A stretch of DNA of 64,000 nt from a virus (IMGVR_UViG_3300028558_000001:64001-128000); one strand, 5' to 3'. Positions 23,040 to 57,367 are shown, numbered from the stretch's first letter. The notes: generated by a model from the sequence alone, not told the origin. Numbers and translations: made by a program.

Positions 23040-23412
23040 TATACTCAATAGCTTGAGGTACATGTTCAACAGTATTAAATTCACCGTTTAAAATATCTTC
23101 AATATGATAGATAGATACAATCTCATCTGTCTTGGAAGTAAAATACATCGGAGAAATAGTAGTATAATAGATGAACATTATTGCATCATCATATTTAATT
23201 GTTTCTGATAAAATGAAATTTTCTTCATCAACATTACAACCAGCTTCTTCTAATAGTTCTCTTTTAGCAGCAGTACGTGGAAGTTCACCTTCCTCTACTT
23301 TACCACCAATACCATTTAGTTGATCCTTCTGCCAATCTGGTCTTTTCTTTCGGATAAGAAGAACCTTATCCATAGTTTGGTTAAAAACAAACGTTAGTAC
23401 ATATTCTTGCAT
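23023..23412 (-). CDS. NUDIX hydrolase
   Basis: Nudix box GGKVEEGELPRTAAKRELLEEAG. Confidence 0.9.
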   Translation of the reverse strand: MQEYVLTFVFNQTMDKVLLIRKKRPDWQKDQLNGIGGKVEEGELPRTAAKRELLEEAGCNVDEENFILSETIKYDDAIMFIYYTTISPMYFTSKTDEIVSIYHIEDILNGEFNTVEHVPQAIEYIISTL

Positions 23413-23663
23413 TAATATTGCTCCTGTAAATTATTCCTTGTAAAAGTTAATGAAATCTTATTATCTACTACTTTAGATTCATAACTAACCAAAACTCCAT
23501 ACGTTACACCATTATGATAACGGTCAATAGCATGTGCCATAATGGTGGATACATTATATCCATACATAGCCGCAAAATCATGAGCAAATTCTGGAGAATA
23601 CTCATACTCAATACCTTTATAACAACCTTTAATTGTTCCAGTTATTCCATCATACATAGCCAT
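23412..23663 (-). CDS. Small protein containing a major-capsid (gp23)-like segment
   Basis: YSPEFAHDFAAMYGYN resembles gp23 YSIELAQDLRAVHGMD. Confidence 0.6.
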   Translation of the reverse strand: MAMYDGITGTIKGCYKGIEYEYSPEFAHDFAAMYGYNVSTIMAHAIDRYHNGVTYGVLVSYESKVVDNKISLTFTRNNLQEQY

Positions 23664-23941
23664 TAAATTTCCTTAATATCAATTACAATTTGATTATTAT
23701 CAATCATTATAGGAGTATTGTTAGTAGAATCACATACTATATTAAAAACTTCTAATTCTGGAAATGAAAAGTTAATAATACTACGAACATTAAGTCTAGT
23801 TAAAGCATCATTCATTTCAAATAAAATATAATCATAGATAACTTTTTTAATAGTTTCTCTTAAAGGTAAAGAGATTAAATTTGATATATTATCATCTACA
23901 TTAATGATAATAGTATCTTTTGGTGACATTACATTTAACAT
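23663..23941 (-). CDS. Stand-alone tail-sheath (gp18) C-terminal-domain-like mini protein
   Basis: LFEMNDALTR...F.IVCDSTNNTPIMIDNNQIVIDI resembles sheath FE.ND..TR...VVCDETNNTP..ID.N..V.DI. Confidence 0.7.
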   Translation of the reverse strand: MLNVMSPKDTIIINVDDNISNLISLPLRETIKKVIYDYILFEMNDALTRLNVRSIINFSFPELEVFNIVCDSTNNTPIMIDNNQIVIDIKEI

Positions 23942-23953
23942 TAATTATTCCTT

Positions 23954-26167
23954 TTAAATTAAGCATCCATCTGCACCGTTGCCGACACATGCAGCAGCAC
24001 CGGTAGTTGAAACATCAATGTATTTCTTTTCAAAGAGAGAATTTTCCCAATCAATGTCAACTAGGTTTTGCTGAATCTTTTCCCACTTGTGAAGTAGATA
24101 TACGTCCTTGAGACAATATTCAGCGTCTTTTCTTACTCCACTAAAGTAATTGACACGATACTTCTCAAAGCGACGAATCCAATCCTTCTTAAGAAGATTA
24201 TCATGATCATCAGAGGAAATATCTGCACCAATTCCATATACAGCAGAACAAGCTGTCCATAGATTTCCAAAGGCTCTAAGAGCTTCGACAACTAATCCAG
24301 ATGCAAAGATTGCTCCTGTACCATAATATTCAATGATTTCTTCACCGCTCATGACTTTAGTGAATGGAGCCTGATCGTAATCTTTATCTCCTGATCCTGC
24401 TAGGAATGAAATACCAGCAAAAGTTTCCTTATGGTTAAAGACATATTCTTCTACTGTATCCCAATCATCAACTGTTACTGTATTAGAAATATTATGTCTA
24501 ACTGTTGGATCAACACATAGATCAAGATTAGTACCAGCTTCAACCCAATTTTTCTGAGCCTTAGCAATTAGTTCAAGATGCTTAACTCCTAACAAATCCT
24601 TATTGAAGATAGAAGTCTCAGGAGCAATAACAGGGAATGATACAACATAATCCGTTTTATTAGCTGACCATACTGATTCTTCTACCATATATGGATTGGT
24701 CTTCTTGATTAACTGAGCTACTTCGGTATCCTTGTTTAACTGCATGTTTCTTAGATACATTGGTGCATGTTCGCCACCAATACCAGAAGCAGTCATTAGA
24801 AGAACAGATGCATTACCAGATGGCTTGGAGCATGTGGTACGAGCAGCAGGATTAATGCCAATCATTTCGGCAACAATCTTATTAGTTTTCTTAACGATTT
24901 CAGCACCAGTTCTTAGAACTTCTTCATCAAATAGAATAGCAGGATTATTCATCCAACCAGTAATTGATACTCCTAATAGTGCTTCTCTCTCAAAAATCTT
25001 CTTTGAGGTCTCTGGTAAGAAGTTAAAGGTAGTATAACCAGCCTGTAGTGTACCGATAATTGCTCCTACCTTACATGCTCGATAGAATGTTTCAATATCA
25101 GAACACATACCGCCATTGGTTTCTACAAGATTACAGCCCTGCCAACCAGTCTGACCTTCATATTGAGGGAACATACCAATTTCTACACAAGGATTGTAGA
25201 CATGTTCTTCTGAATCAACAAAGACGAATCCGGGTTCACCAAATTCCTTAACACTCTTCATAAGTGAAGCGAACTTTTCTCTAGTAATCTTGGAGCGAAC
25301 AATGACTGCGGAGTTATTGGAACGTCCTCTTTGTGGGTTATCTGTGAACCAATTACCAGTCTTTGCCGTTGCCATTTCCTCATCTTCTGGTGAGAATAGG
25401 CAAATTGTAGCAGAACGACGAACACCACCAGAAATGACAGCATCAGCAGCATACATTACAATATCATAGACATGAATTGGTTTTAATTCAATTCCGCCCT
25501 TCTTGGAAAGTGTTAGTCCCTGTAATAGATACTCGATCTTATCTAGAGCTAGACGGAGAGGTTCTGGACCCGGAGCCTTGAAGCCACCTGAAATCATTGA
25601 ATTCTTAAGTCTAATTAGGGATAGATCAAAGTAAACTCTGCGGCCTTCGTATTCAGGATACTTACCGCCGCCCTCAAAGAAGGAAGCCATTAGAACGTCT
25701 AATGCTGTTGCCCATCCTTCAATAGAATCTTCAACGACATGAAGCTTGGGCTGCTTGGTGCGGAGTTTAATTTTGGGGAGTTTAGAGATATGGTGCTTTT
25801 GTACAGAGAAACCAGCACCAGCACCACATAACATAACCCAAAAGATTTCACCAAAAAATTCTGGTCTATCTGCATATGTAGAAGTACAATTATACATCTT
25901 CATATGGTTCTTAAGGATTTGATCGCCACCGAACTGTAAAGCTCTCTGAGCGCCTAGAACTAACTTGTCTTGATATGCGGAAGTTGCTTCTTCGATTAGT
26001 TCTAGTAATTGTGGTGTTAATTTATCTTCATAATACTTTTTATGCATATTCATAACTCTTAAGACTGATTCATTCCAAGTCTCGTATCTTCCAAGTTCCT
26101 CATCCCATCTAGAATAACCTTCATAAAACTTGGTGTCAGACATTAATTGACGTGTATTCAAATACAT
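23954..26167 (-). CDS. Ribonucleotide reductase catalytic subunit (NrdJ-like or NrdAk-type; class uncertain)
   Basis: YSRW...YETW, MYNCT, GGVRRSA, NPCVEI, CNLVE, KPSG and C-terminal Cys pair; 737 aa. Confidence 0.9.
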   Translation of the reverse strand: MYLNTRQLMSDTKFYEGYSRWDEELGRYETWNESVLRVMNMHKKYYEDKLTPQLLELIEEATSAYQDKLVLGAQRALQFGGDQILKNHMKMYNCTSTYADRPEFFGEIFWVMLCGAGAGFSVQKHHISKLPKIKLRTKQPKLHVVEDSIEGWATALDVLMASFFEGGGKYPEYEGRRVYFDLSLIRLKNSMISGGFKAPGPEPLRLALDKIEYLLQGLTLSKKGGIELKPIHVYDIVMYAADAVISGGVRRSATICLFSPEDEEMATAKTGNWFTDNPQRGRSNNSAVIVRSKITREKFASLMKSVKEFGEPGFVFVDSEEHVYNPCVEIGMFPQYEGQTGWQGCNLVETNGGMCSDIETFYRACKVGAIIGTLQAGYTTFNFLPETSKKIFEREALLGVSITGWMNNPAILFDEEVLRTGAEIVKKTNKIVAEMIGINPAARTTCSKPSGNASVLLMTASGIGGEHAPMYLRNMQLNKDTEVAQLIKKTNPYMVEESVWSANKTDYVVSFPVIAPETSIFNKDLLGVKHLELIAKAQKNWVEAGTNLDLCVDPTVRHNISNTVTVDDWDTVEEYVFNHKETFAGISFLAGSGDKDYDQAPFTKVMSGEEIIEYYGTGAIFASGLVVEALRAFGNLWTACSAVYGIGADISSDDHDNLLKKDWIRRFEKYRVNYFSGVRKDAEYCLKDVYLLHKWEKIQQNLVDIDWENSLFEKKYIDVSTTGAAACVGNGADGCLI

Positions 26168-26213
26168 TAACTTACTTACCTCTTTATAATTTTTGATTAA
26201 ATTTCATAGCGAC

Positions 26214-26221
26214 TATAAATA
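26214..26221 (+). promoter_or_regulatory. T4-type late promoter TATAAATA for gp2
   Basis: Exact consensus; implies the true gp2 start lies downstream (ATG 26250 or TTG 26262). Confidence 0.7.
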
Positions 26222-26249
26222 CTTACATACTATATTTAACTCTCTAATA

Positions 26250-26954
26250 ATGGATTTTTACTTGGCAGACTACCTTTTTCAACAAATTCGCAAAGAAGCT
26301 AAAACATTCCGAGACGAAGACGGTCAACCGATCAGTCTCAGACGAAATGAAGAAAAGGCCAGAGAATGGTATCAGAACGCGGCTGAGCAAGTAGCATCAG
26401 TCAATAATAACAGACTATTCCAGTCTATGGACCCATTTACTCGTTTCCAACGTATTGACTCAAGGTCAATTGGAAAAATGTACATGTTCCAATACGCAGC
26501 CAAGCATAGGGATAGACTTCCCTATTATGACATGTTTCCAATCGTTTTTCCAATAGAAATTTATTCTAATGGATTTCTTGGTATTAACCTCCATTACCTT
26601 CGCCCATATCATAGAGCATGGTTAATGGATGAACTTTTCAAGTTGAAAAATAATGATAGCTGGAATAAGAACACTAAACTCCAAGAAGATAAAGAAGCCG
26701 CTCTTTCATATCAATTCTTGAAGTCAGTTATTCCTTCCCCACTATTCAAGCCTACACTTCACAGGTATCTCATTTCAGATTCATCTAAAGGATATTACGC
26801 TGGTGTAGTATCTCCAAATTTCTATTATATCAATCCCGGTTTATGGGATTACGCTGCCCTTCTACCAACTCAACGTTTCGTAAAGGGTATCCACAATACG
26901 GCAATCTCATCAGAGCAAGTCTGGTTGGATTCAAACTCTGCTCGTTATCGGTGA
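26250..26954 (+). CDS. gp2: DNA end protector protein gp2
   Basis: GKMYMFQY.AKHRDRLPYYD.FP, GFLGINLHYL, W..AALLPTQRF, VW.DS motifs. Confidence 0.9.
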   Translation: MDFYLADYLFQQIRKEAKTFRDEDGQPISLRRNEEKAREWYQNAAEQVASVNNNRLFQSMDPFTRFQRIDSRSIGKMYMFQYAAKHRDRLPYYDMFPIVFPIEIYSNGFLGINLHYLRPYHRAWLMDELFKLKNNDSWNKNTKLQEDKEAALSYQFLKSVIPSPLFKPTLHRYLISDSSKGYYAGVVSPNFYYINPGLWDYAALLPTQRFVKGIHNTAISSEQVWLDSNSARYR

Positions 26955-27026
26955 TAAGAATAGTATTATAGCAAAGAATACTCGTCCTGCCAAGTAGAAA
27001 TATTTGGCAGGATTTGTCTTTTTTAC

Positions 27027-27055
27027 TTGACACGTTTTTTGGAACTTGGTATAAT
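27027..27055 (+). promoter_or_regulatory. Sigma70-type promoter upstream of primase
   Basis: TTGACA-17 nt-TATAAT perfect consensus, intergenic. Confidence 0.85.
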
Positions 27056-27135
27056 CCATATGTGTTCAGCAAGATAGTAATTGTTTTTGGTGACACTACA
27101 GGATCAACAGTTAGTAATAGGCGAAGTTAGGTATC

Positions 27136-28155
27136 ATGAATTATCTTGAATTGAAATATATGAATTTAGTTGCCTACAAGTTAAGGAACTATAAGCAACG
27201 ATCCAATAGACTCATTAACTTTTCATGTCCATATTGTGGAGATTCTTCTCATAAGAAGAATAGAGCTAGAGGATATATTCTAGAGAAGAATGGTTCTTCT
27301 GTATTCTATTGTCATAATTGTTCTGTTACAAAATCAGTAGAACAATTTATTAAATTTCTTGATGAAACAACATATCAAGAAATGATGATGGAAAAGTTTG
27401 AAGACACTAGAAAAGAAAAGAAAGATGAATATCAGGTTGACTTTTCGACGGTCAAGAGGACTTTTTCTAATAAGATATTAGGCGGAATGAAAAAGATTTC
27501 ACAACTGAAACATGATCATCCTGTCAAGAAATATATTGAATCAAGAATGATCCCAACTAATCTTCATTATAAGTTATATTACTGTCCAAAGTTCATGGCT
27601 TGGGTAAATTCGATCATTCCAGATAAGTTTTCAAAAGAAGCACTTGCCTATGATGAACCTAGACTCCTTATTCCTTTTTGGGACAAGGAGGGCAATATCC
27701 ATGCGTTTCAGGGAAGAAGTTTCAAGAGAAAGACCGATACCAAGTATATCACAATCGTCTTGGATGAATCAACGCCAAAATTATATGGGCTTGACACTCT
27801 GGACGAAAGGGCTAGAATCTACGTTCTTGAGGGTCCAATTGATTCTATGTTCATACCAAATGCCATAGCAACGGCTGGTGGAGATATGGTATCGGCAGTC
27901 TCAGGATTTGATAAAGAGAACCTTGTTATCGTATATGATAATGAACCACGTAGTATTGAAACTCATCATAAACTTGACAAAGCTATAGATAACGGGTATA
28001 ATGTTTGTATATTTCCAGATGCGGTCACTGAAAAAGATATTAATAAAATGCGCGAAGCTGGAAGAAGTTCGCCCGGTATTAAGTCAATAATTGATTACAA
28101 TATCTATTCTGGTTTAGAGGCCAAGCTAAGATTAGCCGAATGGTCCAAGAGATAA
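27136..28155 (+). CDS. gp61: DNA primase gp61
   Basis: CPYCGDS...CHNC zinc finger, QGRS, EGPIDSMF TOPRIM, YDNEPR, KDIN. Confidence 0.95.
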   Translation: MNYLELKYMNLVAYKLRNYKQRSNRLINFSCPYCGDSSHKKNRARGYILEKNGSSVFYCHNCSVTKSVEQFIKFLDETTYQEMMMEKFEDTRKEKKDEYQVDFSTVKRTFSNKILGGMKKISQLKHDHPVKKYIESRMIPTNLHYKLYYCPKFMAWVNSIIPDKFSKEALAYDEPRLLIPFWDKEGNIHAFQGRSFKRKTDTKYITIVLDESTPKLYGLDTLDERARIYVLEGPIDSMFIPNAIATAGGDMVSAVSGFDKENLVIVYDNEPRSIETHHKLDKAIDNGYNVCIFPDAVTEKDINKMREAGRSSPGIKSIIDYNIYSGLEAKLRLAEWSKR

Positions 28156-28167
28156 TAAGGAAAAAGA

Positions 28168-28368
28168 ATGAATGAGAAATCCGAAGCCCAATTGCTAATT
28201 GACAAAGTTACAAAAACTTTTTATGATTATGATAATGAGACAATGTATGTTGGTATATTAGATTTTATGATGCTATTAATTGATGCAGCAAAATTGATAG
28301 ATAAACAGGAAAAAGAAATTTTATCTCTTAAGGACGACATTTATAATGACAAATGGAGATATTCTTGA
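28168..28368 (+). CDS. Hypothetical protein
   Basis: ORF with AAGGA SD, co-oriented in operon. Confidence 0.5.
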   Translation: MNEKSEAQLLIDKVTKTFYDYDNETMYVGILDFMMLLIDAAKLIDKQEKEILSLKDDIYNDKWRYS

Positions 28369-28393
28369 GAGAAGTATGGTTTGGAGATAATTA

Positions 28394-28582
28394 GTGAATA
28401 CAGTTTCACCTTTTAAACGAGTCACAGTTAAAGATATAAGTGGAAACATAATATATAGTATTGTTGGATACACAAATAATTTTGTTATTAATTCCGATAT
28501 AACACAAGAATTGGGATTTGATATTATTGATGTGATCATAACAGATGATAGCCATGAAGTAATAGTGAGGAAGCAACATTGA
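28394..28582 (+). CDS. Hypothetical protein
   Basis: GGAG SD, GTG start, overlaps td start. Confidence 0.45.
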   Translation: MNTVSPFKRVTVKDISGNIIYSIVGYTNNFVINSDITQELGFDIIDVIITDDSHEVIVRKQH

Positions 28583-29463: not shown

Positions 29464-29472
29464 GGAATTAAT

Positions 29473-30191: not shown

Positions 30192-30224
30192 AAGGCTAAA
30201 TAGCAATAAAGGATTATTGCTATT

Positions 30225-31095: not shown

Positions 31096-31320
31096 TTGTT
31101 AACAGCTATTATGCTTGTTCTACTACTTTATTGCTTCTATCGCATCGTGAAGTTTATTTGGTTCCGAGCACCACCTTACGCTGATTATTCGTCATCTTAT
31201 CTTGACTCGGCGGAAGAAGTATACTATAATACTGAAATTGAAGGTCGAACAGATCGCTATTACGATCCAAAGACCCATAATATGCACGTTCCCTATAAGA
31301 AGGAAGAAAATGGAAATTAA
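31096..31320 (+). CDS. Small membrane-anchored hypothetical protein
   Basis: N-terminal hydrophobic helix, GGAG SD. Confidence 0.45.
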   Translation: MLTAIMLVLLLYCFYRIVKFIWFRAPPYADYSSSYLDSAEEVYYNTEIEGRTDRYYDPKTHNMHVPYKKEENGN

Positions 31321-32295: not shown

Positions 32296-32709
32296 TTGAG
32301 TACAGTTTCAAATAATATTTTAAGTTTTCCAGTAAATGATAATCTTCCTTATACGCCTCCAAAGACGAGGGAACAAATTAGAGAGAACATTGATTTAATC
32401 AGACAGATTCATGTTCAGGAAGCTCTTGAAATTGTTATGGAACTAATGTTTACCCATCTGCAATTAGCCGGGTTTAATATTGATGATGAGAATACTCCTT
32501 CACAAAGAGAAGGCGCTTTCATCGCAGAATCCATTCGGTCAGTTCTCCTAAATATCTATGGGATTGATCATCCCTTCCAGAAGATTTGTGACAACATCTT
32601 CGTTGAACGGAAAGATGGTTCTCTTGATATTGCTAAGGAAATTGCATTAGTTCTTAAGGAAGATAGTCCTGAACCTGAATTAGAATTAGAATTAGAAAAT
32701 GAGGAATAA
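32296..32709 (+). CDS. Conserved T4-like hypothetical protein
   Basis: NNILSFP...ESIRS.....GIDHPFQ; directly upstream of RNase H. Confidence 0.55.
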   Translation: MSTVSNNILSFPVNDNLPYTPPKTREQIRENIDLIRQIHVQEALEIVMELMFTHLQLAGFNIDDENTPSQREGAFIAESIRSVLLNIYGIDHPFQKICDNIFVERKDGSLDIAKEIALVLKEDSPEPELELELENEE

Positions 32710-33572
32710 TGATAATTATTGATATTAGTCAAACCATTATTAGTAATATAATGGTTTCTCCTGAAATGAAAGAATCAAAGAACCTAAATCTTGAAATGGT
32801 TCGCAGTATGGTTCTAAAGACAATCAAATCATTCAATAATAAGTTTAAGAATGAGTATGGTAAGTTAGTTATTGCCGTCGATGCTGGTAATACATGGCGC
32901 AGGGAATATTTTCCTTATTATAAAGTAAAGCGTCGTGAAGCACATGCAGAGTCAGTAATTGACTGGAAGAAAGTCTATGAAATTATCAGGATCATCAAGA
33001 ACGAATTGAAAGAAACCTTTCCTTATCCGGTGATTGAAGTTGAAGGAGCCGAAGCTGACGATGTTATTGCTTCTCTCTGTAAACATTTTGGTGAAGAAGG
33101 ATTTGGTGCTTCTGAAAAGATTTTGATCTTATCAAGAGACAAAGACTTTATCCAGCTACACAAGTATTCTAATGTGGATCAATTTGATCCTATTGGAGAC
33201 AAGTGGATTAGAAATATTGATCCAGAATTATATCTCAAAGAACATATCATCCGTGGTGATTCTGGAGATTCAATTCCAAACATCTTATCTGCTGATGATT
33301 GTTTTGCCTTAAAGATTAGGCAGAAGTCAATCATGACCAAGAAAGTTGATGTATGGCTAGGACAGGATTGGAAAGAATTCTGTGACGAAGATACATTGAA
33401 AAGAGTAGAAAGAAACACCACTCTTATTGATCTAACTAGAATTCCTCCAGCTATTGGGGTTAAGGTCATTGAAGAGTATTCCGCCCAACAAGGTAAACCC
33501 CGCAATAAGATTTTTAACTATATGATTAAGAATGGTTTAACAAGTCTTATGGATGACTTACAGGATTTTTAA
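32709..33572 (+). CDS. rnh: RNase H / 5'-3' flap exonuclease
   Basis: IIID, WRR..FPYYK..R, EADDVIA, S.DKDF.QL, GDSGDSIPNI. Confidence 0.93.
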   Translation: MIIIDISQTIISNIMVSPEMKESKNLNLEMVRSMVLKTIKSFNNKFKNEYGKLVIAVDAGNTWRREYFPYYKVKRREAHAESVIDWKKVYEIIRIIKNELKETFPYPVIEVEGAEADDVIASLCKHFGEEGFGASEKILILSRDKDFIQLHKYSNVDQFDPIGDKWIRNIDPELYLKEHIIRGDSGDSIPNILSADDCFALKIRQKSIMTKKVDVWLGQDWKEFCDEDTLKRVERNTTLIDLTRIPPAIGVKVIEEYSAQQGKPRNKIFNYMIKNGLTSLMDDLQDF

Positions 33573-33836
33573 ATGAATTTAGAAGAATTTTTAAAAAGAT
33601 ATACTGATGAAGTAGATACAGAAGATACTTTTAGATCACTGTTTCTTTCTGCTCAGTTAATGGAAGATTTAAAGGCAATTCAGGGTGTTGATGCTATTGA
33701 AGAGTTATATCAGATTATGAAGGTAGAGTTTACTGCTAAGGCTTCTTTAGAATTACTTACCGTAGATATGCTTGAATATATCTTAGAAAGAAAGAGAGAT
33801 AATGGTACAGAAGATAATCAACAGAACACTCAATAA
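33573..33836 (+). CDS. Small protein containing a major-capsid (gp23)-like segment
   Basis: LSAQLMEDLKAIQGVDAIEELYQIMKVEF resembles gp23 YSIELAQDLRAVHGMDADAELSGILATEI. Confidence 0.7.
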   Translation: MNLEEFLKRYTDEVDTEDTFRSLFLSAQLMEDLKAIQGVDAIEELYQIMKVEFTAKASLELLTVDMLEYILERKRDNGTEDNQQNTQ

Positions 33837-34245
33837 TTTTTTTAATAGTGTTCAAGAAACCGAAATTGGTTCAGGAGTTAGATTTCCTATCAGAGCAACT
33901 ATTAAGTTGATTCTAGAAAATCAAGAATTGTTTTCTTTAAAGACAACAGCAGATGCACCAACATTTCTTTATAATGACCTTGCATATCTTGTTATGTCAA
34001 AGGCATTAAAAACTAAATTTGATTTATCTCAGACAATTGATGATAGGTTAATGAATCCAAAGCATTATGAAGATGATTATATAGATTTGGTAGTTAATGA
34101 GTTAGTATCCCTTATTAAAAGAGAAACAGAAGATGGTTCAATTTATATTATGTATGCACCAATCATTCTTGTGAAAGCTATTGATCCTGTTACCTATCAG
34201 CCTCAGATTGCATTTAAGACTAGATATGGTCTAGTAAAGAAGTGA
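33802..34245 (+). CDS. Mini major-capsid-like protein (gp23 N- and C-terminal motifs)
   Basis: RATIKLILENQE (gp23 N-term ..LENQE) and YAPIILVKAIDPVTYQPQIAFKTRYGLV (gp23 C-term ..DP..FQP.MGFKTRYG). Confidence 0.75.
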   Translation: MVQKIINRTLNNFFNSVQETEIGSGVRFPIRATIKLILENQELFSLKTTADAPTFLYNDLAYLVMSKALKTKFDLSQTIDDRLMNPKHYEDDYIDLVVNELVSLIKRETEDGSIYIMYAPIILVKAIDPVTYQPQIAFKTRYGLVKK

Positions 34246-49516: not shown

Positions 49517-50092
49517 TTATGTTAATTGCAAACTCCAAGTAAAGTAGGAAATGCCTACAGTTACTTTCATTAAATTAGAACCATTTTCCCAACTTAAAGG
49601 TATTTCTTCTAAGTATGTAGGAAACGCCTTATTTAATGTATGGGTCATGACTGGATTTCCCTCATTTTCAAAAGTCTTAATTGTTATACTAGTTGTATAA
49701 TTGTCTTTATATGCTAATTGAAATGAAGGGATTCCTCCATTATTTATAGTAGAAAATTGAATTATATAGTTTAACCACCCATAAAAGAAGTTGTATATTT
49801 CTCCATTGGCGTCTGAAATAAAGGATATTGTACTATCAGTATATGTTATATTATATGGCATCTTCTGTGCTGGACCGATACCATAAATTAGGTTATCTCC
49901 AGTCTGTATTTTTAATCCCGGTAAAGCAGTATCACATGCCCTAAACGTCATTAGCTTAGCTAGATCAGATGATCCCATTGTAGAAATTTTACCTAACGCC
50001 GCATTAACAGGAATGGACACTTCAAATTTGTTATTTTGAAGTGTTCCATAATTTCCTATATTTTGTTTAAATGCGTTAACGTCAAACGCCAT
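49517..50092 (-). CDS. Tail tube initiator gp54-like
   Basis: True start MAFDVNAFK at 50092; N.FEV, LPG, MPY..TY, AFP..L..IPLSW motifs. Confidence 0.75.
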   Translation of the reverse strand: MAFDVNAFKQNIGNYGTLQNNKFEVSIPVNAALGKISTMGSSDLAKLMTFRACDTALPGLKIQTGDNLIYGIGPAQKMPYNITYTDSTISFISDANGEIYNFFYGWLNYIIQFSTINNGGIPSFQLAYKDNYTTSITIKTFENEGNPVMTHTLNKAFPTYLEEIPLSWENGSNLMKVTVGISYFTWSLQLT

Positions 50093-50544
50093 TAAGGATG
50101 AACTTTCTGTACTAATGTTATAGCGGTATAACCATATTGACCGATCCACATTAATACAGCACCGCCACCAACAGCTAACCAAATATATTTTGTTAGGGAA
50201 TCAAGCTTGCTACCAAGAGAATCAATTTTAGTAGATAATACTTTAATGTCTTCATCTTTCTCGGTTAACTTCTTTTCTACGGTTGCGTAATGATCCTTGA
50301 GCTTATTATCTAGTTCTGTACGGCTTTTATCGAGTGAGTCTCTATAATTATTATTGTTCTGTTCGTGATATGCCAAACGCTGTTCGTGAACTGCTAATAG
50401 ATTAGTTACATTAGATGAAACCTCAGTTAACTTATCTATCGTAATATCCATCTTTTCAACTAGAATAGATATTTGTGCCATGTTTTTTTGAAGCTCCGAT
50501 ACGTCGTCTCGTATTTTTTCTACACGTTCTACTGACACGATCAT
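50092..50544 (-). CDS. Coiled-coil protein with C-terminal TM helix (holin-like candidate)
   Basis: LAVHEQRL coiled coil; KYIWLAVGGGAVLMWIG TM segment. Confidence 0.5.
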   Translation of the reverse strand: MIVSVERVEKIRDDVSELQKNMAQISILVEKMDITIDKLTEVSSNVTNLLAVHEQRLAYHEQNNNNYRDSLDKSRTELDNKLKDHYATVEKKLTEKDEDIKVLSTKIDSLGSKLDSLTKYIWLAVGGGAVLMWIGQYGYTAITLVQKVHP

Positions 50545-50717: not shown

Positions 50718-50728
50718 TCCATTTCCCT

Positions 50729-51115: not shown

Positions 51116-51119
51116 TTAC

Positions 51120-51407: not shown

Positions 51408-51420
51408 GCTACTTTATTCC

Positions 51421-51969
51421 TTATGGAACGTTAGCTGTAGCTTGAATTGTTCCTGCTGCAACTAGTGTTTCATACTGTTTACGTCCTGCGCGACCACCAA
51501 ATGTTAGTGAAAATGCTGCTAGAGTACCGTTTGCTGTACCGCCTGTTGAGTTGGCTACAACTGCTGTTTCAGTACCAAGGAATCCAGAAGATGAACTTGT
51601 TAGTGTAACAGTATTAATAGTACCATTTGCATAGGTAGTAATAGCGCCTAGGGCAGGAGCATTGTTTGTATCATATGATACAACCTTAGCAATGTCTAGA
51701 TTTGAATAACCAGAACCACCATTAGTTACAGTAAACTTAGTGACTGGACCAGTGCCAGTACGGACTAGAACCCAACCATCATGGGACATTTTAAATCCAT
51801 TATTATTTGCTGTAGTTGAATTTGCTGGAAATACACCTACAACTTGGTTCTGTGTAAATGCATCTAGATTTGTATTAGAATACAAAGTATTACCACGCGC
51901 TTTGCTCGTAGCTAGAATGTGATACTTAGGTGCTGAGTTAGCGTTTGCTGTGTTTCCCCAAAGAGACAT
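51421..51969 (-). CDS. Virion structural protein (putative head decoration)
   Basis: MSLWG...H.GWV....GGRAGR..YETLVA motif seen in T4-like virion proteins. Confidence 0.6.
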   Translation of the reverse strand: MSLWGNTANANSAPKYHILATSKARGNTLYSNTNLDAFTQNQVVGVFPANSTTANNNGFKMSHDGWVLVRTGTGPVTKFTVTNGGSGYSNLDIAKVVSYDTNNAPALGAITTYANGTINTVTLTSSSSGFLGTETAVVANSTGGTANGTLAAFSLTFGGRAGRKQYETLVAAGTIQATANVP

Positions 51970-52319
51970 TATTGATTTCCTTCTGTGTTGTTGATTATTT
52001 TGTCGAAATGAGCAATTTCTGAATCAGAAAAAGTCACATCAATATTTTCACGTACAGAAGATTTCTTCTTTGGCTTTACGGACTTTTCTTTCTTTTCTTT
52101 GTCCTGTAAATTATCATCGTCTTTTTCTTCATTTCCGTCCCCATCGACACCATTAATTTTTGGGTCGGTTTCGACTTCTGTTTTTTCCGTTGGCTTCGTC
52201 TTAACGTCGCCTTCGTCTTTTTCTTCTTTATCAGTATCTTTAGCTTCTACTATCTTAGCGATAGTATTTAGAAAATCTTTTGATACCAATTCTCTAATAT
52301 CTGTAATAAAAATAGACAT
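51969..52319 (-). CDS. Highly charged late protein (prohead core/internal protein-like)
   Basis: K/E/D-rich; tandem AATAAATA late-like promoters at about 52345-52362. Confidence 0.45.
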   Translation of the reverse strand: MSIFITDIRELVSKDFLNTIAKIVEAKDTDKEEKDEGDVKTKPTEKTEVETDPKINGVDGDGNEEKDDDNLQDKEKKEKSVKPKKKSSVRENIDVTFSDSEIAHFDKIINNTEGNQ

Positions 52320-52381
52320 TTGTTTCCCTATATAATAAAAACTATATTTATTATATTTATTGGAATCAAATGCCTATTAAA

Positions 52382-52579
52382 TTAAATAGCAATCTGTTTG
52401 AGGATTTTTCTTGCAGTACCGGGAGCTAGGTTTCCTTCATGTCTTGGGAGGGCGACAATTATACAAAACTCAGGATGAGAGTAGATTTCATGCGGGCCAC
52501 TGTTTCGTTTCAGGGACCATCCCTTTTTATAGAGAAGGGTTTTCATTTCTGATCGGGAGAATTGAATATTAGTTTTCAT
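52382..52579 (-). CDS. HicA-family mRNA interferase-like protein
   Basis: L.KKGW...R..GPH....HP......P.H..L..GT...ILKQ; start MKTNIQF at 52579. Confidence 0.8.
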   Translation of the reverse strand: MKTNIQFSRSEMKTLLYKKGWSLKRNSGPHEIYSHPEFCIIVALPRHEGNLAPGTARKILKQIAI

Positions 52580-52580
52580 A

Positions 52581-52793
52581 TCAATTCTCCGTGGAAGGTA
52601 AGCCTTCGACGGTAAAGAACTTTGGAATCCAACCTTCAAATGCCTTACCATCCTTTAGGTTAGAAAGAACTTTGTTTGCGGCAGAATATGTAGGGAAGTT
52701 ACCAAACATGATTTCAGAAGTCTTTTCATAGATAGCGAACTTGTTCTGATTAGTAGTTCTTAACTCATATACGTTTGTTAGGTTGTCCATCAT
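52581..52793 (-). CDS. Conserved hypothetical protein
   Basis: IYEKTS...L..G.AFEGW.P.FF motif. Confidence 0.55.
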   Translation of the reverse strand: MMDNLTNVYELRTTNQNKFAIYEKTSEIMFGNFPTYSAANKVLSNLKDGKAFEGWIPKFFTVEGLPSTEN

Positions 52794-53101
52794 TCGTCTT
52801 CCCCTGAACGAAAATAAGTATCGGATTCTTTAATCTTATTATAAAGATTTACGATTTCTGTTTGAGTAGAATCATGTATATCTGATAACCAATTAATAAG
52901 TTTATTTCTCTTCTCTACTAAAAGCTGTATTCTCTGATACTCTGCTTCCCTTCGTGTAGCAAAGGTATTAGCGAAAGGGATATAATAACGATTTTCTAAT
53001 TCATCGCCAACTAGGTATTCCTTAGCTTCATATTCTGTTCTAAGCACTTCGTATTTATATAAATCGTAAGTAACATCTGCTATAAACCATACTGTAGACA
53101 T
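52790..53101 (-). CDS. Hypothetical protein
   Basis: GGAG SD; operon context. Confidence 0.5.
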   Translation of the reverse strand: MSTVWFIADVTYDLYKYEVLRTEYEAKEYLVGDELENRYYIPFANTFATRREAEYQRIQLLVEKRNKLINWLSDIHDSTQTEIVNLYNKIKESDTYFRSGEDE

Positions 53102-53110
53102 GCTATTCTC

Positions 53111-53563
53111 CTAGTTTAAGTGGATTGTGGGTGGATCGTAGAGAAGTATTCCGGTTTCATTTTCGAACTTTTCTTTATTATCTTCTGGAAGATAGATTGA
53201 TGCTTGTACATACGACCTTTTAAAGTTTCTATTGAAACAATATAGATCGTTCAACCTTCCTCCATTTGTCATCAAAGAAAAACAGAATTCACCAAGAACT
53301 TTCTTTGATAACGATAATTTCTTACCGTCCTGACCAGCATCAGGAGTTACGTAATTCTTACCATTACAAATATGAATTTTTTCAAACATATTGTACTGTT
53401 CACGAAATAACTGAAAAATTCTGGTAATCTTATCAGAGGTAGCTTTCTTTTTATTAAGATAGTCTTTAACCATCATGGTAATATCCATATCATTCAAGTC
53501 TGGTTCAAGAATATCGAATAACGCATCCCACATATTAAAATATTCCTTAAATCTATTTACCAA
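53111..53563 (-). CDS. Hypothetical protein
   Basis: 150 aa ORF in operon. Confidence 0.5.
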   Translation of the reverse strand: MVNRFKEYFNMWDALFDILEPDLNDMDITMMVKDYLNKKKATSDKITRIFQLFREQYNMFEKIHICNGKNYVTPDAGQDGKKLSLSKKVLGEFCFSLMTNGGRLNDLYCFNRNFKRSYVQASIYLPEDNKEKFENETGILLYDPPTIHLN

Positions 53564-53721
53564 TGATGCACCACGTTTACTATTAGTATCAAATTAGTGA
53601 CAATGTATACCAATACAATTCCACTTCTTATTAAAGCAACTTTATCGGATTCTGAATGGGAATGAGGCAAAGCCTTGTCTCCAAGGGCTTTGCTCCAATA
53701 ATACCATATATTATCAATCAT
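53557..53721 (-). CDS. Small membrane protein (54 aa)
   Basis: Manual translation MIDNIWYYWSKALGDKA...SDKVALIR...TN..IV.NVVHHW. Confidence 0.6.
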   Translation of the reverse strand: MIDNIWYYWSKALGDKALPHSHSESDKVALIRSGIVLVYIVTNLILIVNVVHHW

Positions 53722-53730
53722 ACGTTATTC

Positions 53731-55161
53731 CTATGAGAAATTATCAAATAGACTTTTGTTGAATTTACCTTTCTTCCTAGAACGGTCATTATCCTGTTCT
53801 CCAAAGAAAGTAGAATCCATAACAGGTCTATCGTCCTGAATTACTCCATCCCCATCAACGAGCAAGTTCTGGGCTGAGTCGTCTACATTGTAGAGACGCA
53901 TCTTAGACTTGTCAACTCCGACTACGAACTTATTATGTAGATCAAGAGAACCAAATCTATTTTTCAATTGCTTGAATACTAATTGTCCGAGTTTTCTAAG
54001 TTCTTCATTCTCGATAATGCCAAGCATGAAGTCTACCGTAAATGGAAGACCAGCAGATTCGGAAGTATCGGCAAGTGTAGGATCGGAGGATGACATGCCC
54101 TGTCTATTATACTGAGTACCAGAAATAATAGGAACATTTGCTTCTACTGCAAGACCACGTAATTCTTCTGCAATAGCTTTAATGTAGGAATATGAGTTAA
54201 CCGTTCCGCCCATCTTAATTCTAGATGAACAACAAATATTGATATAGTCAATATAGATAACATCTGGAATGAACTTCTTTTTAATCTTTAGTTCGTTTAG
54301 AAGATAACGGAAATGGGAAGCCCCGGCTGATCCAGTTGGATATTCTTTGATAATAAGTTTGCCGGTTGTTTTCTTCTTAACTCTGGCGATCTTCTTGTTA
54401 TACATTTCCTCTGGAATAGTTCCCATTTCGTCAAGAGGAATGTCGAGAAGGTTCGCGTCAATACGTTCTGCAATTCTTTCTTCTGCCATTTCAAGTGTGA
54501 TGTATAGGACGTTCCTACCATCCATTAGATTTGTAGCGGCCATGTGACACATAGCGCCGGTTTTAAACACGCCAGTACCGCCTAGAAGTACTGAGAGGGA
54601 CTTGCGAGGCAATCCGCCCTTTGTGATCTTGTTTAGATAATCAATATCGAATGGAATACGTTCTTCGATCTTATGATAGAATTCATATCTCTGATTAAAA
54701 TCTTCTAAGAAGTCATGTCCGATATTGGTATCAAAAGAAACTGCTAGGGCGTCTTGGAGAATGCCGGGAATGGCATCCTTAGTTAATGTTGACTTCTCCT
54801 TTTCATTTAAAATTTTAATTGATGAATGAATAGCATTATAGATAGATTTGTCCTGACAGAATGTTTCTGTTTGATCAAATAGCCAGTCTGTTGACGTTTT
54901 CTCGTCAAGCGAGAAGTTGGCGATCTTATCTTTGATTTCTTCAAATTGATCATCTGAAATCTTACTTGAATTTGATAGGTCAATGGCTAGTGATTCCTGT
55001 GATGGGAATGAGCCGTACTTGTTAACGTATGTATCAATTAGTTCAAATAAAACTTTGTCTTGATAGTCTGAGAAGTATTCTGTTTTGAGGAAGGGGAAAA
55101 TCTTTCTAGAATATGTTTCATTTAGTATTAGATTAGAAAAAATGATATTCTCGAAACTCAA
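53731..55161 (-). CDS. gp41: Replicative DNA helicase gp41
   Basis: FCQDK.IY.A, LNKITKGG, YITLEMAEERIAERIDAN, IKEYPT, IDY.NI, IAEELRGLAVE, SES, KQLKNR. Confidence 0.96.
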   Translation of the reverse strand: MSFENIIFSNLILNETYSRKIFPFLKTEYFSDYQDKVLFELIDTYVNKYGSFPSQESLAIDLSNSSKISDDQFEEIKDKIANFSLDEKTSTDWLFDQTETFCQDKSIYNAIHSSIKILNEKEKSTLTKDAIPGILQDALAVSFDTNIGHDFLEDFNQRYEFYHKIEERIPFDIDYLNKITKGGLPRKSLSVLLGGTGVFKTGAMCHMAATNLMDGRNVLYITLEMAEERIAERIDANLLDIPLDEMGTIPEEMYNKKIARVKKKTTGKLIIKEYPTGSAGASHFRYLLNELKIKKKFIPDVIYIDYINICCSSRIKMGGTVNSYSYIKAIAEELRGLAVEANVPIISGTQYNRQGMSSSDPTLADTSESAGLPFTVDFMLGIIENEELRKLGQLVFKQLKNRFGSLDLHNKFVVGVDKSKMRLYNVDDSAQNLLVDGDGVIQDDRPVMDSTFFGEQDNDRSRKKGKFNKSLFDNFS

Positions 55162-55164
55162 TTA

Positions 55165-55407
55165 TTATCCTTCGTATGGTTGTTGTGGGATTGACTTAAT
55201 TACCAGATTGATTGTTTTTACTTGATGTTCAATCGTAGAATTAATATAAGCTACCGCTTCTTCCTTTGAAGAAAACTGGTGATATGTGGCGTTGTTTGTC
55301 ACAACGCCACTATCTGGATGCTCGGAGATAATTCTAAAATTAGTCTTAAAGTCATATAGAACGTAGTCGAAAACAACGTACCACGTTAAGGCTAATTCAT
55401 TACTCAT
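55165..55407 (-). CDS. Hypothetical protein
   Basis: AAGGAG SD; between uvsX and gp41. Confidence 0.5.
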   Translation of the reverse strand: MSNELALTWYVVFDYVLYDFKTNFRIISEHPDSGVVTNNATYHQFSSKEEAVAYINSTIEHQVKTINLVIKSIPQQPYEG

Positions 55408-55432
55408 AATATATCACTCCTTCAAGTAATTG

Positions 55433-56536
55433 TCAATGCAACATTTGCTTTCCTGTAGACCAATCTGGATCGGAGTCAGTATCAATTTCGTAGTCGGTTG
55501 GTTCAGACTCATAAGTATCATTATGAGAATTAACTAACTTGAACTTGTCAGATACGAACTTCGTAAACTTTGGATTGGCTAGAATATCATCCCAAAACTC
55601 GGCTGTATTTGTCGCACTTTCGCGAAGACTTGGTTCTGAGACAACCCCATCTTCATCTACCTTGGCGTACCAACCAACTTTAGGTTTAACAACAATTCCG
55701 CAGTCAAGAGCTAGATCAAGTAGACCAGAATACTTCTGAATTCCCTTGTCATAAAGAACTTGGAATGGTAACTTGGAACGTTCCTTGACGAAACGGGACT
55801 TCTCTACATTGAGAGTAAAGTTCCAACCGACAATATCAGTTCCTACTTTTTCTTGTGCCTTAGAGATAATGAAAGCCTGATTGGCAGAATACATTAGTCC
55901 AGTACCACCAGAAATAATGGTTTTGCCATACATCTTCATTTCTTCATAAGTGTGACAGATAGCAATACAAGGAACGTCCTTGGCTACGAGAGAGGGTGTT
56001 ACCATACGGAACAGTCCCTTCATAACCTTTGCTCTTTGCATTTCTGCCTTGCTCTCACCATCTAGAGCATCTTCTAGTTCCTTAAGAGAAGCAGTATTGC
56101 CTACTGAGTCAATTAGGAAGATTACCTTATCTCCACGATTGATTTCCTTTAACTGCTTAACAATATCGTACTTAAGCATTTCAAGATGTTCAATCGGAAC
56201 GTGCATAACACGTTTCGGATCAATGCCCTGAGATTCTAGATATTTTGGAGTAATTCCACCTTCTGAGTCATAGAAGATACAGACAGCATCTTCATACTTG
56301 CTTAAATAAGCTCTGACACATACTAGTGAGATATTTGTTTTGAATGTCTTACTTGGACCGGCAATGAGGGTTAGACCAGAAGATAGTCCACCATCAACTT
56401 CACCTGAGAACGCAATATTAACGATTGGAATATCGGTAGCAATTACGTCTTTATCATTAAAAAATTCGGATTCATCTAAGACAGAAGCAAATTTTGTTGG
56501 AGAGTTTTTTAATAGCCTCTGCATAAGTTTATTCAT
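55433..56536 (-). CDS. uvsX: UvsX RecA-like recombinase
   Basis: N.AFSG...GGL, AGPSKTFKT, FYDSE.G, DS.GN.AS.KE, GGTG..YSA, KSRFVKE. Confidence 0.95.
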   Translation of the reverse strand: MNKLMQRLLKNSPTKFASVLDESEFFNDKDVIATDIPIVNIAFSGEVDGGLSSGLTLIAGPSKTFKTNISLVCVRAYLSKYEDAVCIFYDSEGGITPKYLESQGIDPKRVMHVPIEHLEMLKYDIVKQLKEINRGDKVIFLIDSVGNTASLKELEDALDGESKAEMQRAKVMKGLFRMVTPSLVAKDVPCIAICHTYEEMKMYGKTIISGGTGLMYSANQAFIISKAQEKVGTDIVGWNFTLNVEKSRFVKERSKLPFQVLYDKGIQKYSGLLDLALDCGIVVKPKVGWYAKVDEDGVVSEPSLRESATNTAEFWDDILANPKFTKFVSDKFKLVNSHNDTYESEPTDYEIDTDSDPDWSTGKQMLH

Positions 56537-56600
56537 TTAGTTTCCTTTTGTTATGAGTTTATTGTAGTTAATGTCCGTTCTCACGCGGACATACTATTTA

Positions 56601-57035
56601 TCAAACATCATAACCAAAACTCATCTTTGTCCTTTCTTTTAATGGCATACCTAACCATGTAAATTCATCAGAATCGTTACCCTCTAGAATATCTAGAAAT
56701 CTAGCTGGCAACTTGACATTATCTAAGTCCATAGTTTCTTTGAATAGTGGAGCAATTTCTTCTGGAGTATAACCAGCAAGACCGCATCCAATTTCTGTAA
56801 CCATAAAAGTAAAGACTCCATGAATTTTGGCGTCTTTGATAAATTCGTTTACATAGACTTTGATCTTATCTAGGTCTAGTGTTTTTAGTTTTCTATCTTT
56901 AGTTGGAATTGCATAGGAATAGCCTTGAATTCCTACGCCCTGACCAATGATAGCGCCATGATTTTTATAGGCGAACAGAGCGGCACCCGCGCCATGTCTA
57001 CCAGCTTCGTTAGAACCGAATACGAAAATGTTCAT
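56601..57035 (-). CDS. Macrodomain-like phage protein (A1S_2505-like family)
   Basis: IFVFGSN.AGRHGAGAA, YAIPT, F.VT.IGCGLAG, IAPLF. Confidence 0.75.
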   Translation of the reverse strand: MNIFVFGSNEAGRHGAGAALFAYKNHGAIIGQGVGIQGYSYAIPTKDRKLKTLDLDKIKVYVNEFIKDAKIHGVFTFMVTEIGCGLAGYTPEEIAPLFKETMDLDNVKLPARFLDILEGNDSDEFTWLGMPLKERTKMSFGYDV

Positions 57036-57037
57036 GA

Positions 57038-57367
57038 TTAATCCGTTGTGGTTGGAGTTGCCAAAGGTACTGCTTGATAGTGATCAAATAAACTACTCAT
57101 ATCATATTCAATATATTGTACTCCATGAGTTTCTTGGGGGATTTCAACAGTATATTCAGAACTTAAATTCCTAGCTCCTTCCTGTACTGTAGTACGAACA
57201 TATTCAATTGGTGGGGAATATTCATACTGGAGAGTAGCGCCACCACAGGGATTCTGCCCTGTTGGAAAAGGTTCACTAGTTTCCGTTACTTCGTCTACCC
57301 AAGCTATATTATATTTCTTTATTGGTGGCTCTATTACAGAATATTCAACTAATGGGTGTTTAAACAT
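57038..57367 (-). CDS. Small protein containing a major-capsid (gp23)-like segment
   Basis: RTTVQEGARNLSSEYTVEIPQE resembles gp23 K.TV.AKSR.LKAEY(S/T).ELAQD. Confidence 0.5.
   Translation of the reverse strand: MFKHPLVEYSVIEPPIKKYNIAWVDEVTETSEPFPTGQNPCGGATLQYEYSPPIEYVRTTVQEGARNLSSEYTVEIPQETHGVQYIEYDMSSLFDHYQAVPLATPTTTD

Follow-up and report, generated by a model that had tools for sequence, protein, structure and literature searches.

Five small genes packed among replication genes

The window analysed here, a stretch of 64,000 nucleotides from an uncultured T4-like phage, contains five small open reading frames (ORFs A-E; Table 1) at three loci directly downstream of genes for ribonucleotide reductase (RNR), RNase H (rnh) and DNA polymerase. 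The earlier note had presented all five as intact genes, and their coordinates, tight packing and coding signals bear this out: each begins 0-15 nt from the upstream stop, and their in-frame codon usage is gene-like, falling in the top 3-9% when ranked against 292 chance ORFs. At the first locus B starts 12 nt past the stop of the RNR gene, and A has 1-nt overlaps with B on its upstream side and with a NUDIX gene on its downstream side. A TnsA-like endonuclease gene adjoins this locus. At the second, the start of C immediately follows the stop of rnh, and C and D overlap by 35 nt in different frames. The rnh product shows 73.6% amino-acid identity to its counterpart in a related contig (L007), while the DNA polymerase reaches at most 41% identity to that of any cultured phage in tblastn searches.

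Table 1. The small ORFs, their neighbours and related features. Positions are counted from the first nucleotide of the window unless marked as genome coordinates.
Feature	Position	Strand	Evidence or context
ORF A, 83 aa	23412..23663	-	weak resemblance to gp23 strand and spine helix, residues 5-47 against gp23 203-243
ORF B, 92 aa, tail-sheath C-terminal-domain fragment	23663..23941	-	PHROGs, tblastn, own gp18, PDB
Class II RNR	23954..26167	-	upstream of B and A; its homologues (66-73% identity) carry the name ribonucleotide reductase in their sources
Sigma-70-type consensus promoter	27027	+	
Sigma-70-type consensus promoter	31202	+	
rnh (RNase H)	32709..33572	+	upstream anchor of the C/D locus; matches annotated cyanophage Rnh genes
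ORF C, 87 aa	33573..33836	+	BLASTP to own gp23, hhalign
ORF D, mini-gp23, 147 aa	33802..34245 (genome 97802-98245)	+	Pfam Gp23, orthologue P0002, structure model, gp24 match; flanked by rnh and DUF6433/PhoH
ORF E, 109 aa	57038..57367	-	flanked by DNA polymerase and a gene of PHROG 2072
gp43-type DNA polymerase	57383..59893	-	upstream of E; tblastn to phage DNA polymerases
54-aa ORF with LVRRxMPN segment (Gol region)	genome 141037-141204	-	hhalign 92%; outside the window
Genuine gp23	genome 157273-158625		near portal, tube and sheath genes; outside the window
Genuine gp18	genome 168.1-170.3 kb		outside the window

The positions of the genuine gp23 and gp18 genes agree with the proposal that the small genes stand apart from the morphogenesis modules. 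As had also been noted, the late promoter motif TATAAATA is absent beside all five, and no terminator-like sites are present between 31.2 and 34.3 kb, downstream of the second of the two sigma-70-type promoters. Transcription units with such promoters and replication genes do contain small genes of capsid and sheath origin, and the pattern seen for D recurs in other T4-like phages.

A truncated capsid protein and its family

ORF D matches the Pfam Gp23 family (PF07068) over profile positions 311-350 with 26.9 bits against a cut-off of 24.4 (30.8 bits in a genome-wide search), and BLASTP aligns it to residues 386-419 of the phage's own gp23 with 59% identity (E 3e-12), a score reached by none of 500 shuffled sequences. 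Its structure model is confident (pLDDT 89.7, pTM 0.83) and consists of N-terminal helices, a short sheet, the spine helix and one long hairpin, with nothing else in its 147 residues. When this model was compared with 48,161 chains using VIA-align, the top match was T4 gp24 (1YUE; Z 8.7, rmsd 3.3, 126 of the 147 residues, model residues 13-147 lying on chain residues 13-384), and nearly all of the top 50 were HK97-fold capsid or encapsulin proteins. D thus shares with T4-type gp23/gp24 (PF07068; 1YUE, 7VRT) the N-arm helices, the base strands of the E-loop as a stub, the spine helix and the P-domain hairpin (PYxP...QPxIxFKTRYG), and carries the motifs SRAxKxxY..QD, PYxP and DPxTYQPxIxFKTRYG, whereas C has only a strand and the spine helix. 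It lacks the insertion domain, both A-domain segments (gp23 ~256-385) and the C-terminal ~32 residues of gp23, such that the P-domain, spine helix and N-arm of the HK97 topology are present while the complete fold with its A-domain is absent. The missing A-domain marks D as a derivative of a capsid protein rather than a capsid protein; as modelled, it is a compact HK97-fold 'mini capsid protein' from which domains have been deleted at domain boundaries. In HK97-type proteins the A-domain makes the center of the capsomer, and given the three missing elements D could form no such center. D further differs from gp23 in its length (the gp23 of this phage has 451 residues) and in its location between rnh and a DUF6433 gene, as gp23 is normally found with the portal, protease and scaffold genes.

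The orthologue of D in L007 (P0002) is 46% identical over residues 1-147, occupies an open frame of equal length and has the same neighbors, rnh and DUF6433, with ATGA overlaps. Between the two genomes dN is 0.55 for D as against 0.19 for the genes on either side (dS is saturated, at 1.5 or more), which indicates that D evolves fast (about three times faster than its neighbors) yet under constraint. By our calculation from the 37% GC content, the chance of a neutral frame of 147 codons remaining open is about 3e-5. Constraint, for which the earlier note had suggested dN/dS as a check, is accordingly seen for D in the comparison with L007; searches for similar-size relatives of B, C, A and E brought up none, and these ORFs are so far singletons.

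Around 12 more distant relatives of D, 167-237 aa in length, align over its residues ~37-146 and end 0-25 residues after KTRYG. In profile alignments the family corresponds to gp23 ~195-252 fused straight to ~384-421, the alignment stopping 2-4 residues past KTRYG, and at the family level hhalign relates it to gp23 with a probability of 99.6%. The most conserved residues are common to the family and gp23 (PYxP, DPxTFQP, GFKTRYG and SRAxKxxY), and the N-terminal regions preceding the conserved core vary between helical, Trp-rich and twin-arginine signal-peptide types, the last opening 4 of the 12 relatives. Pfam, PHROGs and NCBIfam contain no model specific to this family. Every member with an informative context (two further contigs were too short) is surrounded by T4-type replication or recombination genes, namely rnh/DUF6433 in L007, gp45/GIY-YIG/gp44 in L009-L011, gp62/regA/PhoH in L016, uvsW/gp47/gp46 in L017 and ligases in L008. 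D therefore belongs to a conserved, unnamed family whose members are scattered among the genes for replication and recombination in divergent T4-like phages. A GIY-YIG gene adjoins the member P0006.

Sheath, capsid and portal fragments

ORF B recovered the tail sheath C-terminus in PHROGs (PHROG 10581, E 8.9e-8; PHROG 23, E 1.4e-4), residues 569-625 of T4 gp18 in the PDB (E 2.5e-4) and, by tblastn, the sheath genes in 1448 phage records. Against the phage's own gp18 BLASTP gave 38% identity over residues 620-676 (E 6e-10, 0/500 shuffles), within a match region of ~620-683. Like the C-terminal domain of T4 gp18 (3J2M, 9MKB) it carries the motifs LFE.N.A.TR and VCD.TNNTP..D.N; unlike gp18, which has 708 residues in this phage, it is a fragment of only 92 residues downstream of RNR, without the outer domains and stopping ~25-30 residues short of the gp18 end, and hence without the full-length polymerisation-capable ends. 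A single-sequence model of B, with no relatives aligned, had a pLDDT of 43.7 and did not confirm the fold. On sequence grounds, B genuinely derives from the C-terminal domain of the sheath protein, of which it copies all but the last ~30 residues.

ORF C is a free-standing copy of gp23 ~211-262, comprising the last E-loop strand and the spine helix, to which a leader of 19 aa and a polar tail are added. C is 46% identical to own gp23 219-255 over 37 aa (BLASTP E 8e-7, 0/500 shuffles), and hhalign gave a probability of 66% (P 5.8e-5). The remaining two ORFs resemble gp23 more weakly. A aligns with gp23 206-255 at 28% identity (BLASTP E 1e-3, 0/500 shuffles; hhalign 12%, P 2.5e-3) and E with gp23 204-271 at 23.5% identity (E 6e-3, 1/500 shuffles; hhalign 16%, P 1.6e-3), the resemblance of E extending over gp23 185-269 (TTVQEGARNLSSEYTVEIPQE versus TTVTAGSRGLQGSYSIELAQD). 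When all 1933 open frames of the genome were searched with a gp23 profile, E ranked fifth (E-value 0.067) and A sixth (0.29). Pfam and PHROGs reported nothing for either, and relaxing the Pfam limit to E 10 gave no match for C, A or E. These scores do not establish a kinship of A and E to gp23; the two are probably small genes that are either unrelated to it or very decayed.

The earlier note had counted four ORFs with gp23 motifs and one with a sheath motif. This stands for D and C as well as for B, both on the motifs and on comparison with the phage's own proteins, but not for A and E (P about 0.002). Similarly, the shared segment YS.ELAQDL.A.HG.DA is real in C and degenerate in D, and is unproven in A and E. 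The view of the five as a single dispersed family is contradicted: a profile search for members of the mini-gp23 family returned C only at E 8, and A and E not at all, placing all three outside the conserved family of D.

Beyond the window, the genome carries two additional late-gene fragments, one from the Gol region of gp23 (Table 1) and one from the portal. An all-against-all search identified three late genes (gp23, gp18 and portal) as sources of fragments; it found none from the equally conserved replication genes for DNA polymerase, RNR and UvsX. Only a single gp23 homologue of full length is encoded in the genome, which has no vertex protein of the gp24 type. In no cultured phage record was a second gp23-like or sheath-like place found; one such search gave 1924 places in 1922 records, and the statement covers all of these but the two extra places.

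Possible competitive mimics and competing explanations

The initial observation is thus partly confirmed, and the initial interpretation is partly supported, in the origin and placement of the genes rather than in their putative activity as decoys, assembly poisons or assembly modulators. The kinship of B with gp18, and of C and D with gp23, far exceeds what chance would give. A reading that we prefer tentatively, as plausible though short of probable, is that these are real small accessory genes, which originated when late virion genes were partly duplicated, were kept among replication genes and act as competitive mimics or chain terminators; A and E are not required for it. The mini-proteins would be produced along with the early or middle genes and might display conserved contact surfaces, those of the P-domain of the capsid protein or of the core domain of the sheath, while missing the parts that extend the lattice, which for D are the A-domain and the C-terminal tail and for B the last ~30 residues. 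With the contact surfaces kept and the lattice-extending parts lost, they could bind a partner of unassembled gp23 or gp18 without polymerising. Candidate partners include an assembly factor, a host sensor, and a structural protein either of this phage or of one that co-infects the cell, and the outcome would be a competitive mimic or a chain terminator. The C-terminal domain of gp18 is the driver of sheath polymerisation, and the loss in D and B of exactly the lattice-extending parts fits a mimic. A non-polymerising mimic is our leading reading of the function of these genes, at low confidence.

Several considerations weigh on this reading. The known capsid sensors (CapRel, Avs and Lit with Gol) are activated by binding, which makes a simple decoy mechanistically awkward: a mimic is expected to trigger such sensors unless its binding is unproductive. 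If it poisoned assembly, a mimic would be a danger to the head of its own phage as well. The twin-arginine-type signal peptides in the family of D are a poor fit with a purely cytoplasmic decoy, as proteins in the periplasm would not be expected to bind capsid subunits, sheath subunits or sensors in the cytoplasm. Finally, B, C, A and E, being without similar-size relatives and in variable slots, could be young, neutral fragment ORFs.

This last point leads to the foremost alternative, which we regard as rather unlikely: that B, C, A, E and the fragments outside the window are relics of late genes, scattered into variable slots between replication genes by illegitimate recombination or by co-conversion driven by homing endonucleases. 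Their frames would be open and packed through youth or deletion of dead DNA, and they would be functionless or raw material for genes. The slots are indeed variable: C is missing from L007, where rnh abuts the orthologue of D; the slot of E is empty in the relative L020, where gp43 abuts uvsX; and the sequence 3' of RNR is unrelated in three relatives, with homing endonucleases there. The endonuclease genes beside A/B and P0006, the lack of similar-size relatives and the three source genes, which look like the work of a general process, point the same way, and the remaining pieces are the most conserved motifs, as detection bias would leave. However, D is clearly no relic, given its orthologue, family, confident compact fold and domain-precise deletions; all the ORFs have gene-like codon usage and coupled starts; no fragments of DNA polymerase, RNR or UvsX genes turned up in the all-against-all search; and 38-46% identity to the parent genes implies a divergence too old for chance-open frames at 37% GC.

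It is less likely still that the mini-HK97 domain is a re-used fold, a stable scaffold for a job unrelated to capsids, such as a membrane or periplasmic role in superinfection exclusion or the binding of replication proteins, with the N-terminal modules directing its location. This is consistent with the variable N-terminal regions around a conserved core, the constant proximity to replication and recombination genes, and the fast evolution and patchy distribution typical of accessory conflict genes; but the residues conserved most strongly in the family are also those conserved most strongly in gp23, suggesting selection on capsid-type contacts, and the sheath and portal pieces of the same genome are left unexplained. 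Least probable is that D and B are morphogenesis helpers of their own phage (e.g. a nucleator or chaperone templating the gp23 P-domain, a protein that holds monomers of gp18 until the tail is assembled, or a part of the neck or of a special vertex), for while D keeps the inter-subunit contact elements of the fold, B keeps the sheath core domain and a single gp23 without a gp24-type protein makes a structural job possible for an extra capsid-like protein, neither the head nor the tail module contains these genes, the late promoter motif is absent from them, their patchy distribution, with no second such place found in the cultured phage records, makes an essential assembly role unlikely, D evolves about three times faster than its neighbors and the signal-peptide variants fit badly.

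A broader extension of the mimic reading, which we consider unlikely at present, is that T4-like phages carry early-expressed, non-polymerising mimics of their own virion proteins as antagonists in biological conflicts. A 2026 review of phage counter-defences discusses capsid proteins as triggers and mentions no capsid-fragment decoy (PMC13728456). If the extension holds, the P-domain-only capsid protein, the truncated sheath core domain and the spine-helix, Gol-region and portal peptides would constitute a class of mimics that occupy host sensors of unassembled capsid or tail proteins, or alternatively cap capsids or sheaths as these grow in co-infecting phages, tailocins or secretion systems.

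Two known systems offer partial parallels. The Gol peptide of T4 gp23, together with the Lit protease and EF-Tu, constitutes an established exclusion system, and is a precedent for a host factor recognising a short conserved segment of gp23 on its own; the 54-aa ORF carries this LVRRxMPN region. In contrast, the parts of gp23 that C, A and E resemble fall within ~203-262, outside the Gol region, and Gol activates the defence rather than blocking it. No Lit-like partner is known for the host of this phage. The Ccm protein of SaPIbov5 (7RWZ), which matches D at Z 5.1, is likewise an accessory protein derived from an HK97-fold capsid protein. Ccm acts on capsid assembly, a role that is only putative for D; it is satellite-encoded, retains the full HK97 fold and co-assembles into shells, whereas D is without the A-domain and is encoded by the phage itself.

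The five small ORFs and the kinship of three to capsid and sheath proteins

Positions 64001-128000 of the source record (176,660 bp, with direct terminal repeats) make up the window; the record represents a metagenomic T4-like myovirus. No cultured phage shares more than 41% identity with its DNA polymerase, and its genuine gp23 and gp18 genes occur in a normal gp18-gp19-gp20...gp23 module. The five small ORFs (A to E) which the earlier note had attributed to fragments of the capsid protein gp23 and the sheath protein gp18 were all found as it described them. C starts on the very next base after the rnh stop codon, B and E start 12 and 15 nt after those of RNR and the DNA polymerase respectively, and single-base overlaps are seen between B and A and between A and a NUDIX gene. 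Codon usage within their frames (0.31-0.43 per codon) is close to that of the genome's real genes (0.46 ± 0.17) and lies in the top 3-9% among 292 chance ORFs overlapping long genes.

Coordinates of the small ORFs, related full-length genes and associated features
Feature	Coordinates	Strand	Description
ORF A	window 23412-23663	-	83 aa, locus after RNR
ORF B	window 23663-23941	-	92 aa, locus after RNR
ORF C	window 33573-33836	+	87 aa, locus after rnh
ORF D	window 33802-34245	+	147 aa, locus after rnh
ORF E	window 57038-57367	-	109 aa, after gp43-type DNA polymerase
Genuine gp23	genome 157273-158625	-	451 aa, outside the window
Genuine gp18	genome 168148-170271	-	708 aa, outside the window
54-aa ORF	genome 141037-141204 (L003:1585-1749)	-	gp23 LVRRxMPN N-arm segment, from all-against-all search
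60-aa ORF	genome 152292-152471	-	resembles portal residues 321-367
600-aa frame	genome 165607-167406		should be the gp20 portal, by position
TnsA-like endonuclease gene	window 22578-23039	+	Pfam 2e-22
Tail tube paralogue	window 49517-50182	-	full-length, 221 aa
Terminator-like hairpin	window 26984-27013		13-bp stem
Sigma-70-type consensus promoter	window 27027-27055	+	perfect 12/12, extended -10 TG
Sigma-70-type consensus promoter	window 31202-31230	+	11/12
Duplicated gene pair	genome 62423-63217 and 150544-151239		outside the window, far apart

The proposed capsid or sheath origin stood for three of the ORFs, each of which matches the phage's own protein. D scores 26.9 bits against the Pfam Gp23 model (curated cut-off 24.4) and shows 59% identity to residues 386-419 of the phage's own gp23 (BLASTP E 3e-12); its nearest clusters in the ESM Atlas are short gp23 pieces. 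C is 46% identical to residues 219-255 of the same protein (E 8e-7). B recovers residues 620-676 of the phage's own gp18 (E 6e-10), residues 569-625 of T4 gp18 in the PDB (E 2.5e-4), the PHROG tail-sheath families (8.9e-8) and sheath genes in 1448 phage records; a single-sequence fold model of B was unusable. The real scores of B, C and D were not equalled in any of 500 shuffles, and we regard the evolutionary and structural identity of these three as solid.

The gp23 kinship of A and E is unproven. Both align weakly to the same stretch of gp23, about residues 203-270 (BLASTP E 1e-3 for A and 6e-3 for E), with hhalign probabilities of 12% (P 2.5e-3) and 16% (P 1.6e-3) respectively. Across the whole genome (1933 open frames) the six best matches to a gp23 profile were gp23 itself, D, an ORF from beyond the window, C, E and A, with E-values of 0.067 for E and 0.29 for A. 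By eye the first ~25 residues of A might prolong the sheath C-terminal tail beyond B, a suggestion that was supported by no search and was dropped. In language-model features of the ESM Atlas the clusters nearest to E (score 0.93) are ~92-aa, partly viral proteins automatically named CDC50/LEM3, an identity not supported by Pfam, which finds no such domain in E. At the DNA level C matches gp23 at 29 of 32 nt and uses the same codon at seven of eight shared residues, versus a 50% baseline in D; given the P of about 0.04, recent gene conversion between C and gp23 is not claimed.

D as a minimal HK97-fold protein

A full HMMER search with D against 1.84 billion representative proteins recovered a 149-aa orthologue (P0002), 46% identical across the whole length, and about 12 further relatives of 167-237 aa aligning to D residues ~37-146. 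Profile-profile comparison of this mini-gp23 family with gp23 (99.6% probability, E 7e-25) maps it to gp23 ~195-252, i.e. the last E-loop strand and the spine helix, fused straight to ~384-421, which forms the PYxP...DPxTFQPxIGFKTRYG hairpin. Absent from the family are the insertion domain of gp23, an A-domain segment of ~130 residues and the last ~32 residues; since the C-terminal tail of the HK97 fold goes back to the A-domain, the loss in D is domain-precise. The AlphaFold model of D, built from only 14 sequences, has a pLDDT of 89.7 and a pTM of 0.83, and exhaustive structure comparison gave T4 gp24 (1YUE) as its best match (Z 8.7, rmsd 3.3 Å over 126 residues, with model residues 13-147 superposed on chain residues 13-384); HK97-fold capsid or encapsulin proteins make up nearly all of the 50 best matches. 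Together, the profile mapping, the confident model and the structural matches show D to be a minimal HK97-fold protein comprised of an N-arm, an E-loop stub and a P-domain. A Foldseek search of the PDB got no further than the 33-36-residue C-terminal hairpin of D, aligned to T4 gp23 (E about 0.1): the gap left by the A-domain breaks the local alignment, and an exhaustive aligner was required. Homology beyond the stop codon of D, hinted at by the genome search, was rejected, as the read-through translation contains nothing gp23-like.

On its 1.57-kb contig the orthologue is lodged between rnh and a DUF6433 gene with ATGA overlaps, and ORF C is absent. An alternative in which C and D represent a single frameshifted copy of the C-terminal half of gp23 is contradicted by this relative, and also by D alone covering the strand, spine helix and hairpin. 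The genes flanking D are 74-76% identical to those of this contig, versus 46% for D, with dN of 0.19 and 0.55 respectively and dS saturated at 1.5 or more. D evolves roughly three times faster than its neighbors and yet is constrained; by our own calculation a neutral 147-codon frame at 37% GC would stay open with a probability of ~3e-5. Other family members occupy differing sites, all of them in replication or recombination regions. In L009-L011 the site has gp45 on one side and a GIY-YIG gene with gp44 on the other; in L016 it is flanked by gp62/regA and PhoH, in L017 by uvsW and gp47/gp46, and in L008 it falls among ligases. Pfam, PHROGs and NCBIfam hold no family for D-type proteins, only partial matches to the capsid family being recovered, and NCBIfam returned nothing for the five ORFs or the family relatives tested. 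Searches of cultured phage records with D or the relative P0011 turned up no record with more than one gp23-like place, while the relative P0009 found 1924 such places in 1922 cultured phage records.

Possible functions of the mini-genes

Among the major triggers of bacterial immunity are capsid and tail proteins (PMC13728456), and our literature search recovered capsid proteins as such triggers and no phage-encoded cut-down capsid or tail copies. We favor as the leading reading that D and B are candidate non-polymerising mimics, because both retain the conserved elements of contact while exactly the parts that extend the lattice are missing from them. In addition, the mini-genes behave like accessory conflict genes in being patchy, fast-evolving and sometimes found beside homing endonucleases. 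The known capsid sensors fire upon binding, which makes a simple decoy of the kind raised in the earlier note awkward. An uncontrolled complex prediction for the phage's gp23 with D (alignment A2 and the family alignment A1) gave a score of 0.00, which counts neither for nor against the mimic reading.

A rival to the mimic reading is that everything except D is a neutral fragment relic. The slots of B, C, A and E are variable: three relatives have an unrelated gene set downstream of RNR, and in the relative L020 gp43 abuts uvsX. No similar-size relatives of B, C, A and E turned up, and searches by protein word index missed every relative of D as well as of B; since the 46% identical orthologue of D surfaced only with full HMMER, the negative result for these four weighs little. 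Nothing informative came from scanning IMG/VR with RNase H, DNA polymerase, B, E and A. A TnsA-like gene on the opposite strand separates a late tail-cap gene from the NUDIX/A/B/RNR array, and is possibly a mobile endonuclease bordering the variable slot.

The mini-genes might alternatively help the phage to assemble its own particles. A further rival is a re-used fold doing an unrelated job. As read from the sequences, 4 of the 12 relatives of D (P0007, P0008, P0009 and P0018, from loci L008 and L016) open with twin-arginine-type signal peptides, e.g. MKRRDFLVGSAATAIAASATSALA, which would suggest export of the capsid-derived domain to the periplasm, and these variants point away from the mimic reading.

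A confidently folded HK97-fold protein with no A-domain would represent a novel, minimal version of one of the commonest folds in the virosphere; its conservation among replication genes, with seemingly exported variants, would also be new. D, its relatives and B are concrete small proteins open to expression. If the fragments are neutral, they still record phages making new small genes from old pieces.

Expression context and further structural fragments

The perfect sigma-70-type promoter, preceded by the terminator-like hairpin, leads the rightward replication-gene block, and no terminator-like sites were found between 31.2 and 34.3 kb. The sequence TATAAATA occurs directly upstream of late genes at 22525 and 48601 and is absent from the mini-genes; overall it is no commoner than expected by chance. 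We infer early or middle expression of the mini-genes.

In the all-against-all search DNA polymerase, RNR and UvsX yielded no fragments. The 54-aa ORF it recovered is the sixth structural-fragment mini-ORF of this genome, with an LVRRVMPN...P..P pattern matching the phage's own gp23 at ~64-126 (hhalign 92%, P 7e-7), a segment known in T4 gp23 as the Gol peptide. The 60-aa ORF is 38% identical over 47 aa to the presumed portal frame (E 3e-4). The tail tube paralogue, distant from the tail module, shows 24% identity to gp19 over 196 aa (PHROG tail tube 1.4e-33) and is probably a tube initiator of the gp48/gp54 type. The proteins of the duplicated gene pair are 62-70% identical.
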